Shown here: positions 1,000 to 54,721 of the stretch, piece by piece
Numbering within the stretch: the first letter of the stretch is position 1
Layout: each line of letters starts with the position of its first letter
NCBI GenBank assembly: GCA_028688055.1
Contig: JAQTYZ010000001.1
Span: forward strand, 242,910-306,909
Source: Patescibacteria group bacterium
GTDB taxonomy: Bacteria > Patescibacteriota > Patescibacteriia > Buchananbacterales > UBA6539
Direction of reading: 5' to 3'
DNA length: 64,000 nt
Program-made: the position numbers and the translations under genes
The notes under the pieces: model-generated
The model's input: the letters and a program-made list of their open reading frames with translations, nothing else
What the model was told of the DNA's origin: nothing
Databases searched by the model: none

Positions 1000-3900
1000 T
1001 TATTTATTTATAATCGCCAGAAAATTATTGCTAGTTTTTATCCAATCAAATTTGTTGGCCCAGTCCAAGCATTGAACCATCATTGAATGGCGTAGTTTTT
1101 CGTTGATTATCAGCTCGACCATTTTATCGGCAAATTCTTGGCGGTTGCCATATTCAACTAAGTAACCGGTATGAGGATTACTAACCGAGTCACGTAAGCC
1201 CGGAACGTCAGACGCAATCACCGGCGTGGCGCAGGCGTTGGCTTCAATCGTCGTGATACCCCAGCCTTCCATAAAAGACGGATTAACTAAAACCCAAGCT
1301 TTTTGCAGGAGGCTGATTTTTTGTTGCTCATTAACTTTTCCGGTAAAAGAAACTTTGTCTGACAAATTTAAATTGGTCATCAATTTTTTAAGCTTGTAAT
1401 CTTCCTCACCGCTACCGGCAATGACTAATTTAGCATTCGGAATTTTTTCACTAACAATCTTAAACGCTTCCAGCAAAACATTAATTGATTTATATGCTTT
1501 TAACCGACCGAGATATAAAATTTCCGGGTAAACGCTTTTTTGGCCCGGTTTTAAATCATTAAGATGAACACCTGGATGGACAATCTCAATGCCTGCTTGG
1601 CCAAGACCCAATTCCATTATTTCTTCTTTGCTTGAATTAGAAACGGTGATAAACGGAATTTTTCGGTAAACCAAAGGCATTAAATCTTTTTCCAAAAAAC
1701 TGGCAATTATGGCTAACGGCTTAGCAAGCGATTGACGAAAAACTTCTTGATGAACGTGATGCATTAGGCAATATATTTTTTTTCTTGAATAGAGCGGTGT
1801 AAAAAACGGAATGCCATTTTGACAATCAATAATAACATCATAGTGGCCGCGGAAGCGCAAGCTGTAATAAATAAACGCCCAGAAATAAACAAAATAAAAT
1901 CCACCGCGGCGAATAATTTGTACTCCGTCAACCATTTCATTTCTTAGACACGTTGTATCGTTGCCGCAAAAAATGGTGACATAATGTCCTTGCTTGAGCC
2001 ATTGCTTGGCCATCTCTTGAATATAGGCCTCAGCCCCGCCAGCGAATTTATGTTTAGTATCACGCCAATTAAAAATAAGAATTTTTTTGGTATTGGCATT
2101 GTCAGCAATTGTCGGCAGATTGGCAAATACGCCGAGGAAGTCAATCAGGTTATTTTTAATTGAACCATAGAGGTATTCATAACGATTAAGCCAGGAAATT
2201 GATATTAAGCTCAGCGCGCTAGTTATAAAAATAACGCCGGTTATTTGATAAATATTTTGATGATAGATGATAATACCCAGCGACATCATTACGGAAAAAA
2301 TTAAAGACGCGCCGGCGAAGAAATAATTTTTTTTCGCCAAGTGGTATGAGACATAAACATTGCTAAGGGTAAACATGGCAATCGCCGGCAAATAGATATT
2401 TAAGTATGGCAGCACCACCAATGACTTCGCACCAAAAATAAACGGTATCACCAATCGGCCGAGGGTTAACAAACCAATTGAGCCAAAGCCGACTAAAACG
2501 GCGGTTGCAGCTAAAATAATTCTTAGTTTGTTTTCGGAGTTTTTATTTAAGCCGACGTCGCGACTAACCAGAGTTGTGATGAAAATACTCGGTAGGGCCC
2601 CAAAAAAGAAAACCATTTTTCCAATCAGTGCGAGTAGGGAATACTCGCCAGCAATTTGCGGTGATAAATAATGCTTAACCAAGATGATGTCAAAACTCAA
2701 AAAGACGATGGCGGAAATACCGGCGAACAGTGAAGCGGTATAGAATTTTACCGGGAATTCGATGATGGCGGCTGGTTCCGCTTTAAGGTTTAGTCTATTT
2801 TTGACTAAATAGACTGAGGCTGTCGCCGAAACAATGATTGAAAATGGAATTGAGATAAAGGCAAATTGCCCCAACCCAGCATAGACCAAAACAAACGCCG
2901 CTATCAATTTGCTTACGGACTCGGTCAAAATAATAAGCGCAACGGTTTTAAAATAGAGCGTTCCATTAAGGTAACCTTGGTTAGCAGCAGCAATGACACC
3001 GCCAATTAAAATTGGGGTAAATAACAACAGCGAAAGATAATTTGGCAGCTTAAAAAATATGGTTAAAGTTGGAATAGCTAAGAGCCAAGCCGCCGAGATG
3101 ACAACGGTGGCAATCGCGCCGCGCTTAATAATTTTTTTTAAAAAATTAACACTAGCTTGTTCGCCGACCGCCGTCGACAAGTAAGCGGTTCGGTAATTGA
3201 CTGTTGATGATAAAGCGCCAATAAATATTCCGGCAATAAACCACAGCGTGTTAATGAAAGTAATAAGTCCCAGATTTTCAAAAGTCAAAGCGCGCCCAAG
3301 AAAAGCGTTATATAACAAGTTTAAAACATTTGAAATCATCATCGCCGCCAAAAGTATTCCGCCGCTGGTTAAATTATCCAACTTAATTTTGTAAGGTATC
3401 TTTTCAGCGATGATATTTTGTACTAGCTTAGACGTTGAAGCAAAAAATGACAGCGGTGAACGCTTGCGTAAGTTGGGGCCATTATTATCCCAGCTCCAAT
3501 AATAATCCACCGTTGAGTATGGTAGTCGATCAGTAATCGACTGAAGATCTTGAGGGGTAGTTGATTCTGCCGGCGCTGACGGGATAATGATTTTAAAAAT
3601 TAATAAGCCAAATGATTTTGCCTTAGCTTTGGCAGCTTGGATAAATTCATAGGCCGAATGTTTTTTAATATGCAAACCGTTGTCATCCCAAGACCATTGG
3701 TAGGAACTTAGTCGGTACGAAATTGAACGATACAAATTAGTAACATTATTTTCAATTTTTTGAGTTGTCGCATTACCTTGAGGAATAAACTCGCCAAAAA
3801 ACTGCCAGGTTTTTTGAGCTGTTTGGATTAAGGGTGCCAAAAAAAATTCGCTTGGTTTTATTTTTAGGTGTAAACCGTGATGAGTTTTTTCCCAATAGTG

Positions 3901-51703: not shown

Positions 51704-53083
51704 TTAAAATGATATTTCTTCCGACGCAAATTTTTGATCAATGTTTTTAAAGGTTACATTTTTTTCGTCAAAATATAGTTTAACTTTACCAGTTGGTCCA
51801 TTGCGATGCTTGGCAATGATAATTTCGGCAATATTTTGTTTTTCATTAGGTAAATCCTGCTGGTACAACTTTTCTCGGTAGATAAATAATACTACATCAG
51901 CGTCTTGTTCAATTGATCCGGATTCGCGCAGATCGGCTAAACGGGGGACATGACTATCTCGAGATTCAACGGAACGAGAGAGTTGAGACAAGGCTAAAAC
52001 CGGCACATTTAACTCTCGGGCAATGGCCTTTAAATTTCGCGAAATCTCAGAAACCTCCTGAACACGATTTTCTTTAGAGCCACGGCCTTCCATTAATTGT
52101 AAATAATCAATCACAATCAAACCAAGTCCGTGTTCGGACTGTAAACGACGAGCTTTGGTTCTAATTTCCATCACATTAGCATTAGCCGAGTCATCAATAA
52201 AAATCTTAGCTTCAGATAGTACCCCCATGGCCCGATTTATTTTAGAAAAGTCGTCATTTTCACCTTGATCCGTTAGCTTGCCAGTTCGCATTTTCCACAA
52301 GTCAACACCGGCCTCGGAACACAGTAGGCGATCAACTAACTGCTCCTTGGACATTTCTAAGCTAAACACACCGACCGATTCTTTACCTTTGACCGCAATA
52401 TTTCTGGCGATATCAAGCGCTAACGTCGTCTTACCAACGGACGGCCGCGCCGCCAAAATTATTAAATCAGATTTTTGTAATCCAGCTAAAATATTGTCTA
52501 AATCTTTGTAATGAGTACGTACTCCCCGTAATTTGCCGGATTCCCGATGTAACTCGTCGATTCTATCAAAGGCTTCGGTTAAAACGTCATTAATAGAAAT
52601 AAAAGTCTTTTTCAAAAACTTTTGGGAAACGCTAAATAATTTTTGTTCCGCTTCATCTAAAAGGGTATCCACACTTTCTGTCTCGCGATAGCCCAGTTCG
52701 GTAATATCAGACGCCGCTGACAGCAAACGTCTTAAAGTCGCCTTATTCTGAACAACATTAGCATAGTGTACAACGTGGCTTGAGGTCGGCACCGAATTAG
52801 CCAAACCAGCTAGATAGGTGCGACCGCCAACCGTTTCAAGCTGACCTCGTTCTTCAAGTCGACTGCCTAAACTCAATAGGTCGATCGGCTCACGTTTTTC
52901 GTATAGCTCCCTAATAGCTTGGTAAATCAACCGGTGTCCATCCTTATAAAAATCATCAGGTGAGATGATATCGGCAATTTTAATAATGGCGTCGCGATCA
53001 ATCATAATTGAACCGAGCAAGGATTGTTCCATCTCAAGATTCTGTGGTGGTATTTTATCGTAATTATCGCTATTTTTAGCCAT
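51704..53083 (-). CDS. dnaB: Replicative DNA helicase DnaB
   Basis: N-terminal DnaB domain, Walker A ARPSVGKTT, H2/H3/H4 motifs (LIVIDYLQLM, SQLSR). Confidence 0.9.
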   Translation of the reverse strand: MAKNSDNYDKIPPQNLEMEQSLLGSIMIDRDAIIKIADIISPDDFYKDGHRLIYQAIRELYEKREPIDLLSLGSRLEERGQLETVGGRTYLAGLANSVPTSSHVVHYANVVQNKATLRRLLSAASDITELGYRETESVDTLLDEAEQKLFSVSQKFLKKTFISINDVLTEAFDRIDELHRESGKLRGVRTHYKDLDNILAGLQKSDLIILAARPSVGKTTLALDIARNIAVKGKESVGVFSLEMSKEQLVDRLLCSEAGVDLWKMRTGKLTDQGENDDFSKINRAMGVLSEAKIFIDDSANANVMEIRTKARRLQSEHGLGLIVIDYLQLMEGRGSKENRVQEVSEISRNLKAIARELNVPVLALSQLSRSVESRDSHVPRLADLRESGSIEQDADVVLFIYREKLYQQDLPNEKQNIAEIIIAKHRNGPTGKVKLYFDEKNVTFKNIDQKFASEEISF

Positions 53084-53250
53084 TTCTCTAAAATCTTTGT
53101 TATTAGTAGCTACTTTATACTACTACAGGCGAGTACATTTATTCAAGCCAATCTCATTAACATATTATCCACTAACTTTCACCCTGGACTTGATTTTTTG
53201 TAAAATATTTGATATTATCCTATAGTAAAATTAAAAGCCAAACATTTTAT

Positions 53251-53306
53251 GGGACGTTAGCTCAGCGCGCTAGATCCGCCAGCTGGCGGACTTTTAAGCA
53301 AATGGT
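53251..53306 (+). repeat. Pseudo-tRNA-Lys 5' fragment (direct repeat of the first 16 nt and of the anticodon-loop 16-mer of the downstream intact tRNA-Lys)
   Basis: GGGACGTTAGCTCAGC (53251-53266) and CTTTTAAGCAAATGGT (53291-53306) are identical to 53568-53583 and 53599-53614. The 24 nt between them (a perfect 16-nt palindrome TCCGCCAGCTGGCGGA) replaces the D/anticodon stems. Confidence 0.7.
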
Positions 53307-53577
53307 TATGATGACTTATGTCGTATATGTCTTAAAGTCTGAATCAACTGGAAAAATATACATTGGACAAACAAATAATATTGATGATAGATTAAAAAGA
53401 CATAATAGTTTACTATCTAATAAAAAATCTTCATACACATCTAAAAATAGAGGAACATGGACTTTAATTTATTCCGAAACATGTCAAAGTAGACAACTGG
53501 CGATCCAAAGGGAAAAACAGCTAAAAAGTTACCAAGGACGACAATTTATCAAAAATTTACAAAACATGGGACGTTAG
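53302..53577 (+). CDS. GIY-YIG nuclease family protein (about 91 aa, UPF0213/YhbQ-like)
   Basis: MVMMTYVVYVLKSESTGKIYIGQTNNIDDRLKRHN...LIYSE...REKQLK: GIY(VYV)-9aa-YIG, conserved Arg and Glu. The ATG lies inside the upstream tRNA-derived repeat and the TAG stop lies inside the 5' acceptor stem of tRNA-Lys. Confidence 0.65.
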   Translation: MVMMTYVVYVLKSESTGKIYIGQTNNIDDRLKRHNSLLSNKKSSYTSKNRGTWTLIYSETCQSRQLAIQREKQLKSYQGRQFIKNLQNMGR

Positions 53578-53643
53578 CTCAGCTGGTAGAGCAATTGCCT
53601 TTTAAGCAAATGGTCGGGGGTTCGAATCCCTCACGTCCCACCA
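53568..53643 (+). tRNA. tRNA-Lys (anticodon UUU), CCA encoded
   Basis: Acceptor GGGACGT/ACGTCCC, D-arm GCTC-AGCTGGTA-GAGC, anticodon loop CTTTTAA, T-loop TTCGAAT, discriminator A. Confidence 0.85.
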
Positions 53644-53690
53644 AAAATCCGTCTGTAATTTCCGGCGGTTTTTTGATATAATCAAGAAGT

Positions 53691-54620
53691 ATGATTAATA
53701 GTCTATTTATTTTTGTTTTGTCATTATTTTTGATTATCAAGGGTGCGACCCTGGCAACAAAATATTCGGCCAAACTAGCAAAAAATTTCCATCTGTCAAA
53801 ACATCTTATTGGCTTTATTGTGGTCGCTTTCATTTCAATTTTGCCCGAGGCGCTCATATCAATAAATTCAGCGATTGAAGGAGTCCCCGAGCTTGGGCTT
53901 GGAACTCTATTTGGATCAAATGTTGCCGACCTAACTCTAATTTTTTCTATTTTAATAATATATGCTGGCCGCGGTATAAAAATCGAAAGCAAAATATTAA
54001 AAAGTGTCCGTCTCTACCCATTTTTTCTTTTTTTGCCACTAATTTTTGGACTAAATGGCCATTATTCCCGCGTTGAAGGCATGGCTCTTATCATCTCTGG
54101 AGCGCTTTTTTACTACTTAGTTTTTAAAAATGGCTTGGGATCACCGGCCGACTTACGTAGCGAAGATGACAAATACAAAAATTCATTTTTTCTGCTTTTT
54201 GCTATGATTATCCTGCTAATCGGCTCACATTTTTTGGTGACTTCGGCAACCACCTTGGCCCACCTTCTAAAAGTTACTCCGATCCTTATTGGCATGCTTA
54301 TTGTCGGCCTAGGAACAACAATGCCTGAATTATTCTATTCTCTCAAATCAATAAAGAACAAGGATGACGGACTGGCGACTGGTGATATTTTAGGGACGGT
54401 TTTGGCTGACGCCACAATCCTGGTCGGTATCTTGGCTTTTATTAGTCCTTTTTCTTTCCCAATAAAAATAATTTACATTACGGCCGTATTTATGCTAATG
54501 GCTTCACTTATATTGTTGAAATTCATGCATTCAGGAAAAGTAATCTCAAAAAAAGAAGGCTATATACTTTTGGCCTTTTGGGTAACTTACATTTTAGTGG
54601 AATTTATAGCAAATATTTAA
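53691..54620 (+). CDS. Ca2+:cation antiporter (CaCA/YrbG-like Na+/Ca2+ exchanger family)
   Basis: Two alpha-repeat regions (GTLFGSNVADL and GDILGTVLADATIL), about 10 TM. Confidence 0.75.
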   Translation: MINSLFIFVLSLFLIIKGATLATKYSAKLAKNFHLSKHLIGFIVVAFISILPEALISINSAIEGVPELGLGTLFGSNVADLTLIFSILIIYAGRGIKIESKILKSVRLYPFFLFLPLIFGLNGHYSRVEGMALIISGALFYYLVFKNGLGSPADLRSEDDKYKNSFFLLFAMIILLIGSHFLVTSATTLAHLLKVTPILIGMLIVGLGTTMPELFYSLKSIKNKDDGLATGDILGTVLADATILVGILAFISPFSFPIKIIYITAVFMLMASLILLKFMHSGKVISKKEGYILLAFWVTYILVEFIANI

Positions 54621-54686
54621 AAAATCTAATTCCAACAATTGGCTAATATCATAAATTTGATTTCACCTATCAGTTGGTTCAAAAGA

Positions 54687-54721
54687 GTCCGAACTTCCTC
54701 CCTCATGTCCCACCAAAAAAA
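54687..54721 (+). repeat. Imperfect direct repeat of the tRNA-Lys 3' end (T-arm/acceptor/CCA/A-run)
   Basis: GTCCGAAC..TCCCTCATGTCCCACCAAAAAAA compared with tRNA GTTCGAA-TCCCTCACGTCCCACCAAAAA; lies about 1.08 kb downstream of the tRNA. Confidence 0.5.

Follow-up and report, generated by a model that had tools for sequence, protein, structure and literature searches.

A GIY-YIG nuclease gene and a hairpin lodged in tRNA-Lys and tRNA-Asn genes of Patescibacteria: a candidate selfish cassette

What is a small nuclease gene doing between a broken and an intact copy of the same tRNA gene? The question is raised by a tRNA-Lys locus in a 64-kb stretch of DNA, called the window throughout, which comes from a Patescibacteria metagenome-assembled genome and carries a DnaB that is 80-84% identical to those of Candidatus Buchananbacteria relatives. 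Here an open reading frame (ORF) for a single-domain GIY-YIG nuclease follows a partial, hairpin-split copy of tRNA-Lys and runs into the intact tRNA-Lys gene. An initial annotation of the sequence had seen in this a small tRNA-targeted mobile or homing-type insertion, or its scar. After comparison with homologous loci in other genomes we regard it as reasonably likely that the locus belongs to a family of selfish cassettes, each made of a nuclease resembling the Ssn enzymes and a hairpin, that reside in tRNA-Lys and tRNA-Asn genes of Patescibacteria, are transcribed from the tRNA promoter and are maintained and spread by recombination.

A repeat search of the window recovered the two exact direct repeats of tRNA-Lys sequence that had been reported 317 and 308 nt apart. 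The first, ATGGGACGTTAGCTCAGC, is 18 nt long and consists of the 16 nt noted initially and two leader bases (AT), and the second, CTTTTAAGCAAATGGT, has 16 nt and is colinear with the first (Table 1). By our own arithmetic, chance would place two exact, colinear repeats of 16 nt or more inside a 400-nt span approximately 1e-7 times. The upstream copies correspond to positions 1-16 and 32-47 of tRNA-Lys, and the downstream copies are inside the intact tRNA-Lys(UUU), for which ARAGORN gave its one call (anticodon ttt) and Rfam a tRNA score of 73 bits. ARAGORN called no tRNA at 53251, in agreement with the proposal of one intact and one pseudo-copy. The 24 nt between the upstream repeats (53267-53290) are made up of GCGC, TAGA (tRNA positions 20-23) and TCCGCCAGCTGGCGGA, which we refer to as hairpin H. 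The latter is indeed the perfect 16-nt palindrome described before, but it does not fill the interval, and it replaces tRNA positions 24-31. With Rfam at E <= 10 the region matched tRNA only, the pseudo-tRNA and the hairpin giving no match. No second copy of TCCGCCAGCTGGCGGA was found in the window with up to three mismatches allowed. As the window holds nine perfect 16-nt palindromes, the palindrome is by itself unremarkable, and it is its position and its conservation elsewhere that matter.

The protein is a GIY-YIG nuclease, as had been proposed: the Pfam family PF01541 was matched over residues 3-74 with 59.6 bits against a cut-off of 22.6 (E=3.7e-16), and residues Y6, Y17, G19, R27, H31, E56 and E68, with the catalytic set of the superfamily (two Tyr, Arg, His/Tyr and a metal-binding Glu) among them, are invariant in an alignment of 25 homologues. 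It consists of the catalytic domain alone, 88-91 amino acids (aa) without a DNA-binding module, and its homologues measure 82-105 aa. An AlphaFold model (mean predicted local distance difference test, pLDDT, 87) showed an E-E-H-E-H-H topology, in line with the three-stranded sheet and helices of the superfamily, and its top matches among solved structures were all GIY-YIG domains. With Foldseek, UPF0213 proteins and Slx1 were nearest (template modelling score, TM, 0.54-0.66; 25-32% identity) and I-TevI was further away. Searching the solved structures with the family profile matched UPF0213 proteins, I-TevI and Slx1 and returned no Ssn structure; the UPF0213 protein EF2693 scored 35.2 bits against this profile (hmmsearch), and TIGR01453 gave 25 bits against a cut-off of 56.

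The ends of the gene needed correction. The ATG at 53302 lies inside the second repeat, where the start had been placed, but the alignment of homologues favours the ATG at 53311 (or 53308), 2-5 nt past the repeat, so the start codon is probably outside it. The stop codon, TAG at 53575-53577, is U8-A9-G10 of the tRNA and thus just 3' of the acceptor stem rather than in it. RNase P, which had been suggested to generate the 3' end of the transcript, would indeed cut at the 5' end of the tRNA, but this cut removes the stop codon and gives a non-stop mRNA, so that complete translation needs the unprocessed precursor. Both copies of the first repeat (53249-53260 and 53566-53577) open with ATG GGA CGT TAG, and the transcript would consequently begin with a three-codon mini-ORF that equals the last three codons and the stop of the nuclease gene. 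In the public annotation the gene product (P0001, 122 aa, 53209-53577) is given a TTG start at 53209, which extends the reading frame across the pseudo-tRNA and the hairpin. A library of 1.8 billion proteins likewise contains many family members of 110-125 aa in which the domain starts from about residue 35; these probably reflect the same over-long start artefact.

Linkage of this nuclease to tRNA genes is a property of the family. We collected 80 homologous loci from species-representative genomes, mostly of Patescibacteria, with 45-63% protein identity; they contain 85 ORFs, and tRNAs were identified by ARAGORN. A tRNA on the same strand starts at most 40 nt downstream in 57 of the 85 ORFs (35 Lys, 20 Asn, 1 Cys and 1 His), and an intact tRNA abuts the start codon from upstream in seven more. 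By our own estimate, with about 45 tRNAs per Mb, a tRNA would lie within this distance of the end of roughly one random gene in a thousand. The stop codon coincides with tRNA positions 8-10 in 31 loci, and several homologues terminate in VAQR, the translated sequence of the tRNA D arm (GTAGCTCAGCGGTAG). The Lys- and Asn-associated proteins fall in separate clades of a rough neighbour-joining tree. One locus, L015, carries a frameshifted copy.

The family extends well beyond these loci. A word-indexed search returned 4,041 relatives at E <= 1e-3, almost all of 82-105 aa, and an exhaustive search returned 2,361 clusters at 50% identity with E <= 1e-10. A second, profile-based protein search had sequences of the Candidate Phyla Radiation (CPR) and no named Neisseria SsnA among the matches listed. 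The search of plasmids with tblastn gave two weak and irrelevant matches only, and the viral contigs held no close homologue, only distant genes of the GIY-YIG or homing-endonuclease type with at most 32% full-length identity. Rfam, applied at the gathering score to 12 loci, reported tRNAs and group I introns only. The introns (RF00028, 65-92 bits) are situated in the anticodon loop of tRNA-Asn in L070 (3263-3495), L074 (3297-3510) and L080 (3281-3522), where the intron-bearing tRNA is immediately 3' of an Asn-type nuclease gene and the ORF is outside the intron. In one locus outside Patescibacteria, L063 on a Bacteroidales chromosome, the same hairpin is present twice (3262-3307) after a homologous ORF, embedded in what appears to be the duplicated 3' end of a small RNA gene and its terminator; ARAGORN called no tRNA in this locus.

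In most of the 80 loci the ORF is preceded by a duplicate of the local tRNA's 5' part. When the insert was defined by context alone, as the sequence between two stretches that match the local tRNA, 54 cases were found, each a hairpin of 14-29 nt, nested in a single case, accompanied by no more than a few neighbouring tRNA bases that have diverged. Of these hairpins 52 are perfectly paired, the great majority being TCCGCC-N4-GGCGGA, and the other two carry a mismatch, neither of them G:T. The same hairpin sequence is present in the Lys and the Asn clades. Double changes have occurred in the stem (TTCGCC/GGCGAA, CCCGCC/GGCGGG, TCCGTC/GACGGA, TCCGGC/GCCGGA and TCAGGC/GCCTGA). Among 20 distinct variants 96.7% of the 120 stem cells are paired, three of the six pairs have changed on both sides, and the observed covariation score was reached by no shuffle. 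All variation consists of double changes or rare mismatches, with no one-sided G:T change and no G:U pair. Folded as DNA, the window leader forms H, whereas its minimum-free-energy fold as RNA does not. The lack of G:U intermediates and the folding as DNA rather than RNA lean weakly towards an element that acts at the DNA level. The idea that the palindrome is the scar of an insertion could not be upheld, as it is a conserved hairpin with compensatory changes that recurs in at least 54 pseudo-tRNA copies in other genomes.

The hairpin also has preferred positions. Copies of tRNA-Lys usually carry it between positions 23 and 32, and copies of tRNA-Asn, as well as a few of tRNA-Lys, carry it in the D loop (13/17 or 14/18) or in place of the whole D arm (10/24), while L004 and L021 have a T-loop hairpin in extra pseudo-copies 3' of the intact tRNA. 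Comparison of the variant list with the rough tree showed that the hairpin variants track protein lineages, and four Lys-clade loci with the TCAGGC or TCCGGC variant group together. By analogy with the Ssn enzymes described below, H is probably the recognition element of the nuclease. The extension of the repeat upstream of tRNA position +1 varies from 0 to 15 nt, AT being common, and no fixed target-site duplication can therefore be defined. A function of H as terminator was ruled out, since the versions in tRNA-Lys(CUU) and tRNA-Asn loci lack a U tract. Another family of hairpins, CCTGCC(TGCC)GGyAGGCAGG, recurs close to these tRNA loci, in L006 (3366), L014 (874), L036 (3459), L043 (2201), L062 (3393) and L082 (about 2650); in L082 it splits a pseudo-tRNA-Lys, with no nuclease ORF left.

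As the initial annotation had suggested, the orthologous locus was compared between related genomes, here eight relatives with DnaB orthologues of 80-84% identity and conserved dnaB-recR-L21 synteny, and empty, scarred and filled alleles were found at the same site. In two relatives (L135 and L138) the tRNA-Lys gene is undisturbed, lacking nuclease, hairpin and pseudo-copy alike, and so the arrangement of the window is not a fixed one. Scars take the form of a 12-nt 5' repeat and nothing else (L136), a pseudo-copy that has another hairpin, with a remnant of 35 nt in place of the ORF (L082), or a downstream remnant without ORF (L083). The nuclease is present in L084 and L081 in arrangements other than that of the window, and in L137 as a basal relative (36% identity; 69 bits against the family profile) next to a pseudo-copy split by an unrelated 60-nt hairpin. 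The nuclease gene is thus polymorphic for presence at a fixed site, a trait it shares with classical GIY-YIG homing endonuclease genes, and because distinct pairs of nuclease and hairpin occupy one site, we argue that it has been colonised more than once. Further rearrangements were found in the wider set of loci. The order is reversed in L012, L016, L024, L044, L045 and L048, where the intact tRNA is followed by the ORF and then by tRNA positions 12-23, H, positions 32-76 and the terminator. Identical tandem units are present in L042, L051 and L061; L024 (2440-2870) has at least six tandem 65-nt ORF-less units, each a pseudo-tRNA with hairpin and the first and last few bases of the ORF; and one hairpin is inserted in the loop of another in L071 (about 3253) and L072 (about 2951).

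Both parts of the cassette appear to be kept intact. The nuclease ORF is under purifying selection, with a ratio of nonsynonymous to synonymous substitution rates (dN/dS) of 0.08-0.27 at a dS of 0.6 to above saturation for the closest pairs of loci. The pseudo-copy is maintained and not decaying: in most loci its positions 1-22/25 (Lys) or 1-13 (Asn) do not differ at all from the local tRNA, even though acceptor stems vary widely between genomes. This identity to the functional tRNA holds in loci of the family between which the ORFs are saturated at synonymous sites. The sameness of the repeats may itself be under selection, or else gene conversion or the turnover of units keeps them homogeneous. 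In L002, L007, L009 and L049 the acceptor stem of the pseudo-copy differs from that of the local tRNA, which would fit import together with the cassette. The intact gene may be affected as well. The anticodon stem of the tRNA-Lys in the window (53594-53610) is ATTGC/GCAAA as compared to GCAGC/GCTGA common to six of seven relatives, in a comparison that covered L082, L083, L084, L135, L136 and L137, and its acceptor and T arms resemble those of L136. In this small sample, the comparison hints at a co-conversion mosaic beside the insertion point.

The nearest biochemical model is the Ssn family (cd10448), GIY-YIG proteins of approximately 94 aa and a single domain, whose binding to the hairpin repeat NTS/SRM requires single-stranded DNA (ssDNA) and whose cut falls immediately 5' of the repeat (Chenal et al. 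2025, PMC11893778). Their genes are typically arranged as NTS-ssnA-NTS, likened by the authors to insertion sequence (IS) elements and to repetitive extragenic palindromes with their associated transposases (REP/RAYT), and cleavage persists when the hairpin motif is divided between two oligonucleotides (PMC11893778). In Neisseria, SsnA and NTS have been proposed to limit recombination or incoming transforming ssDNA; tRNA and Patescibacteria are not mentioned (PMC11893778). In our collection, L078 (1258-1607) has a textbook NTS-ssnA-NTS arrangement, a 95-aa GIY-YIG gene with CGTCATTCCCGCGCAGGCGGGAATCTAG inverted on both sides, and this gene served as a proxy for the N. meningitidis SsnA. The same Patescibacteria genome holds a tRNA-Asn cassette, and thus two nuclease and hairpin systems occur there together. 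The proxy is 34% identical to the window protein (pairwise E=2e-11) and scored 44.9 bits against the family profile, compared to 35.2 bits for UPF0213. This indicates that the window protein is Ssn-like, of a related but separate subfamily, rather than a demonstrated Ssn member.

Beyond the patterns that the comparison displays directly, we infer an enzymology and a route of recombination as follows. A cassette would consist of a 5' partial copy of the resident tRNA split by H and a GIY-YIG gene of about 85 aa running into the intact tRNA, the whole being transcribed from the tRNA's own promoter, the site of which was predicted by a consensus scan. By analogy with Ssn and with structure-specific relatives, the nuclease would recognise H in ssDNA. 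Nicks or breaks beside H would land in tRNA-derived homology and lead the pseudo-copy to recombine with intact tRNA genes and to exchange sequence with them by gene conversion, which may keep the repeats identical, yield tandem units and ORF-less derivatives and permit precise loss. The tRNA sequence could thereby serve as portable homology arms for entry into any genome with a similar tRNA, and the duplicated 5' part would leave the host with a working tRNA. A unit cut 5' of successive hairpins would read H-C'-ORF-A (segments as in Table 1), and its insertion between tRNA-Lys positions 23 and 24 gives the arrangement seen; a circular or ends-in form may produce the common arrangement by recombining 5' of H and the reversed one by recombining 3' of it.

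Several observations weigh against a selfish cassette that works in this way. Cleavage by the subfamily of the window is argued from analogy, and the Ssn proxy shares just 34% identity with it. The published SRM pattern, HGTCWYN(0-2)YYVSBRHN(0-5)WNVSBRGN(0-2)RNCYNB, misses H in the window and in every locus, whereas as a regular expression it finds the NTS controls and three sites in the 434 kb of loci, two being the L078 pair and the third lying in L055. Unlike NTS in Neisseria, H is not dispersed and occurs once in the 64 kb. The separate Lys and Asn clades and the saturated synonymous sites fit long vertical residence equally well, and the viral contigs offer no close homologue. Recombination between the repeats deletes the unit precisely, so that empty sites alone are no proof of gain; an empty allele of this strain was not found, the metagenome scan for the upstream flank joined to an intact D loop giving one chance match to a tRNA-Trp. 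Finally, the model leaves unexplained how H survives repair that is templated by the intact tRNA.

A more specific version would have the tRNA-derived arms act as a DNA guide that pairs with ssDNA of intact tRNA-Lys or tRNA-Asn genes and positions the hairpin-bound nuclease. It is suggested by the cutting of Ssn enzymes when the motif is split between two oligonucleotides. Two observations would be accounted for in this way: the arms stay the same as the functional tRNA while synonymous positions of the ORF are saturated from locus to locus, and the nuclease clades are each restricted to a single type of tRNA. We nevertheless think this version quite unlikely.

The same data can be read in other ways. 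The nuclease could be a domesticated host enzyme for genome maintenance, for example limiting recombination or transforming ssDNA, that is co-transcribed with the tRNA incidentally, with the pseudo-tRNA as by-product of an ancient rearrangement. Such a role suits the strong purifying selection on the ORF, the old and separate Lys and Asn clades and the very wide spread over 2,361 clusters (50% identity, E <= 1e-10), and domestication was discussed by the discoverers of Ssn (PMC11893778). It sits poorly, however, with the patchy occurrence at one locus in close relatives, where empty sites, ORF-less scars and a different nuclease and hairpin pair are found, with tandem amplification and ORF-less arrays resembling miniature inverted-repeat transposable elements (MITEs), and with the frameshifted copy in L015; moreover, a by-product pseudo-copy would be expected to decay, yet it does not. 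On balance we consider domestication unlikely. That the pseudo-tRNA and hairpin are mainly an RNA leader, regulating the output of nuclease or tRNA through mRNA stability, RNase P/E processing or attenuation, appears very unlikely to us. The element does lie in the 5' untranslated region downstream of a promoter-like site, its hairpin shows compensatory changes, and the Lys(UUU) loci have a short U run after it (CUUUUAA), but the CUU and Asn versions have no U run and carry the same hairpin in the D loop, and the hairpin is found also 3' of the ORF and of the tRNA, in further pseudo-copies. An RNA element is also hard to reconcile with the absence of G:U pairs from the 120 stem cells of 20 variants, with an RNA minimum-free-energy fold of the window leader that lacks H and with the lack of an Rfam match. 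A leader function would leave the duplication and the polymorphism unexplained, and it is compatible with a selfish cassette.

The footprint of a classical mobile element, whether left by an integrase that duplicates the attachment site (att) of a tRNA-targeting island, by a group I intron in the tRNA or by a homing endonuclease of the classical GIY-YIG type (for example I-TevI or SegB), is so improbable as hardly to come into question. Genes for tRNAs are common integration targets, T4 SegB sets a precedent in a tRNA cluster (PMC2330249), and some neighbouring tRNA-Asn genes have group I introns. In the window, no integrase or recombinase was found between or beside the repeats, the 5' end and not the 3' end of the tRNA is duplicated, and the unit is just about 317 nt; the 3' tRNA fragment further downstream (54682-54718) is likewise without integrase. 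The intact tRNA is contiguous, RF00028 had no match in 52800-54000 even at E <= 10, and where introns exist the ORF is outside them. The nuclease, with 88 aa and no DNA-binding module, has a fold nearer to Slx1 and UPF0213 than to I-TevI. What remains of the proposed tRNA-targeted insertion is that it took place on the 5' side and that the tRNA was kept by duplication of its 5' part; the nuclease is not a classical homing endonuclease.

Table 1. Features of the tRNA-Lys locus, numbered from the first nucleotide of the 64-kb window.
Feature	Position	Strand	Basis
Promoter-like site TTGATT-17-TATTAT with TG	53190..53218	+	Consensus scan; putative function
Pseudo-tRNA segment A, 2 leader bases and tRNA-Lys 1-16	53249..53266	+	Exact copy of 53566-53583
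GCGC and TAGA: altered D-loop bases, then tRNA 20-23	53267..53274	+	Alignment to tRNA
Hairpin H TCCGCCAGCTGGCGGA, 6-bp stem, 4-nt loop, presumed nuclease recognition hairpin	53275..53290	.	Conservation, covariation
Pseudo-tRNA segment C', tRNA-Lys 32-47 (anticodon loop, 3' anticodon stem, variable loop)	53291..53306	+	Exact copy of 53599-53614
Single-domain GIY-YIG nuclease gene, 88 aa, alternative starts 53302 / 53308	53311..53577	+	Pfam, homologue alignment, model
Intact tRNA-Lys(UUU), CCA encoded	53568..53643	+	ARAGORN, Rfam
Terminator-like hairpin CCGTCTG..CCGGCGG and T run	53649..53674	+	Putative; orthologous to the terminator after tRNA-Lys in L082
Degenerate tRNA-Lys 3' third, T loop to CCA (CCCTCAtGTCCCACCAAAAA, 19/20 match)	54682..54718	+	Alignment

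The gene dnaB upstream is divergent, which leaves the promoter before the pseudo-copy as the single plausible one for both ORF and tRNA; from its sequence, this site is probably the native tRNA-Lys promoter, now driving the whole cassette. Reading by eye revealed TTGCAA-17-TATTAT ahead of the pseudo-tRNA in L084, and the match was looser in other relatives. The terminator-like hairpin after the intact tRNA was missed by a simple terminator scan (loop >8 nt). A 30-nt direct repeat of 73% identity (53208-53237 and 53672-53701, beginning TTTGATATtATC and TTTGATATaATC) coincides with two promoter-like sites of the extended -10 type, of which the first precedes the cassette and the second the Na/Ca-exchanger gene; conservation of this second site was seen in L082 and L137, where it again follows the terminator of the tRNA. 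Beyond the exchanger gene (53691-54620) lies the degenerate 3' third of tRNA-Lys, so the tRNA locus has a 3' remnant besides the 5' pseudo-copy. It is possibly what is left of an older downstream pseudo-copy, its membership in the present cassette being uncertain, and it is directly followed by a terminator-like hairpin and T run of its own. Cumulative GC skew rises over 1-50 kb of the window, peaks near 48-52 kb and is flat or slightly negative from about 50 kb, a short way upstream of the tRNA-Lys locus, a signal too weak to assign the replication strand from the window.

If a selfish cassette is the correct interpretation, Ssn-type nucleases, which were characterised only in 2025, would also power a very small selfish element (about 320 nt) by which essential tRNA genes of the sampled Patescibacteria genomes are split and restored. 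Such an element would be a natural system for studying gene conversion driven by ssDNA breaks, would explain the pseudo-tRNA fragments and over-long 'GIY-YIG nuclease family protein' annotations in CPR genomes, and would provide orthogonal pairs of small nuclease and hairpin with defined flanks as possible ssDNA tools. It would also call for caution, as tRNA-Lys and tRNA-Asn genes in the sampled genomes may be co-conversion mosaics. Should the arms in addition prove to act as guides, the result would be a programmable homing system of natural origin, guided by DNA and built from an 85-aa protein. The cassette is very small, occurs in large numbers and can be tested directly.

Among characterised proteins, Slx1 and UPF0213 have the solved structures nearest to the window protein. 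Slx1, a structure-specific nuclease whose substrates are branched and hairpin DNA, differs in requiring Slx4 and a RING domain. To our knowledge, UPF0213 proteins have no known hairpin partner or linkage to tRNA. The combination of a small nuclease gene with a short palindromic hairpin recognised as ssDNA is shared with REP and bacterial interspersed mosaic elements (BIME) and their RAYT enzymes and with IS200/IS605. However, those are HUH enzymes with a covalent chemistry that GIY-YIG enzymes lack, and their repeats are dispersed and not tied to duplications of tRNA genes. T4 SegB, a free-standing GIY-YIG homing enzyme encoded in a tRNA cluster (PMC2330249), is similar in the location of its gene among or next to tRNA genes and in the expectation that breaks in the DNA, with gene conversion of the flanks, favour its inheritance. 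Enzymes of the SegB type are multi-domain, sequence-specific cutters of double-stranded DNA in phages, whereas the window family is a bare catalytic domain, chromosomal in CPR bacteria, with a hairpin-tagged target duplication and no close viral homologue. In the same group of hosts, rRNA genes have GIY-YIG ORFs in non-intron insertions, often at stem-loops (PMC11270868), and both cases concern insertions of this kind in structural RNA genes. Those insertions interrupt the rRNA genes and were judged sparse and not homing-like, and tRNA loci, a hairpin or a target duplication were not described for them (PMC11270868).

The closest parallel is Ssn itself, and the enzyme class and the pairing of gene and hairpin have been known since 2025. 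In the literature searched we found no description of a hairpin embedded in a duplicated tRNA piece, of an ORF fused to tRNA-Lys or tRNA-Asn, of two tRNA-specific clades or of concerted evolution of the repeats. Both systems have a single-domain GIY-YIG protein of approximately 85-95 aa, encoded beside a short, GC-rich hairpin repeat whose sequence changes along with the protein lineage. In the window family, on the other hand, the hairpin has another sequence and the C-terminal motif is EKQLKSYQGRxFIK as compared to ERRLKKWERKWK in the L078 proxy. Where NTS exists in hundreds of dispersed copies, H is found only at the gene, inside a duplicated piece of tRNA, and the gene itself is fused to tRNA-Lys or tRNA-Asn.

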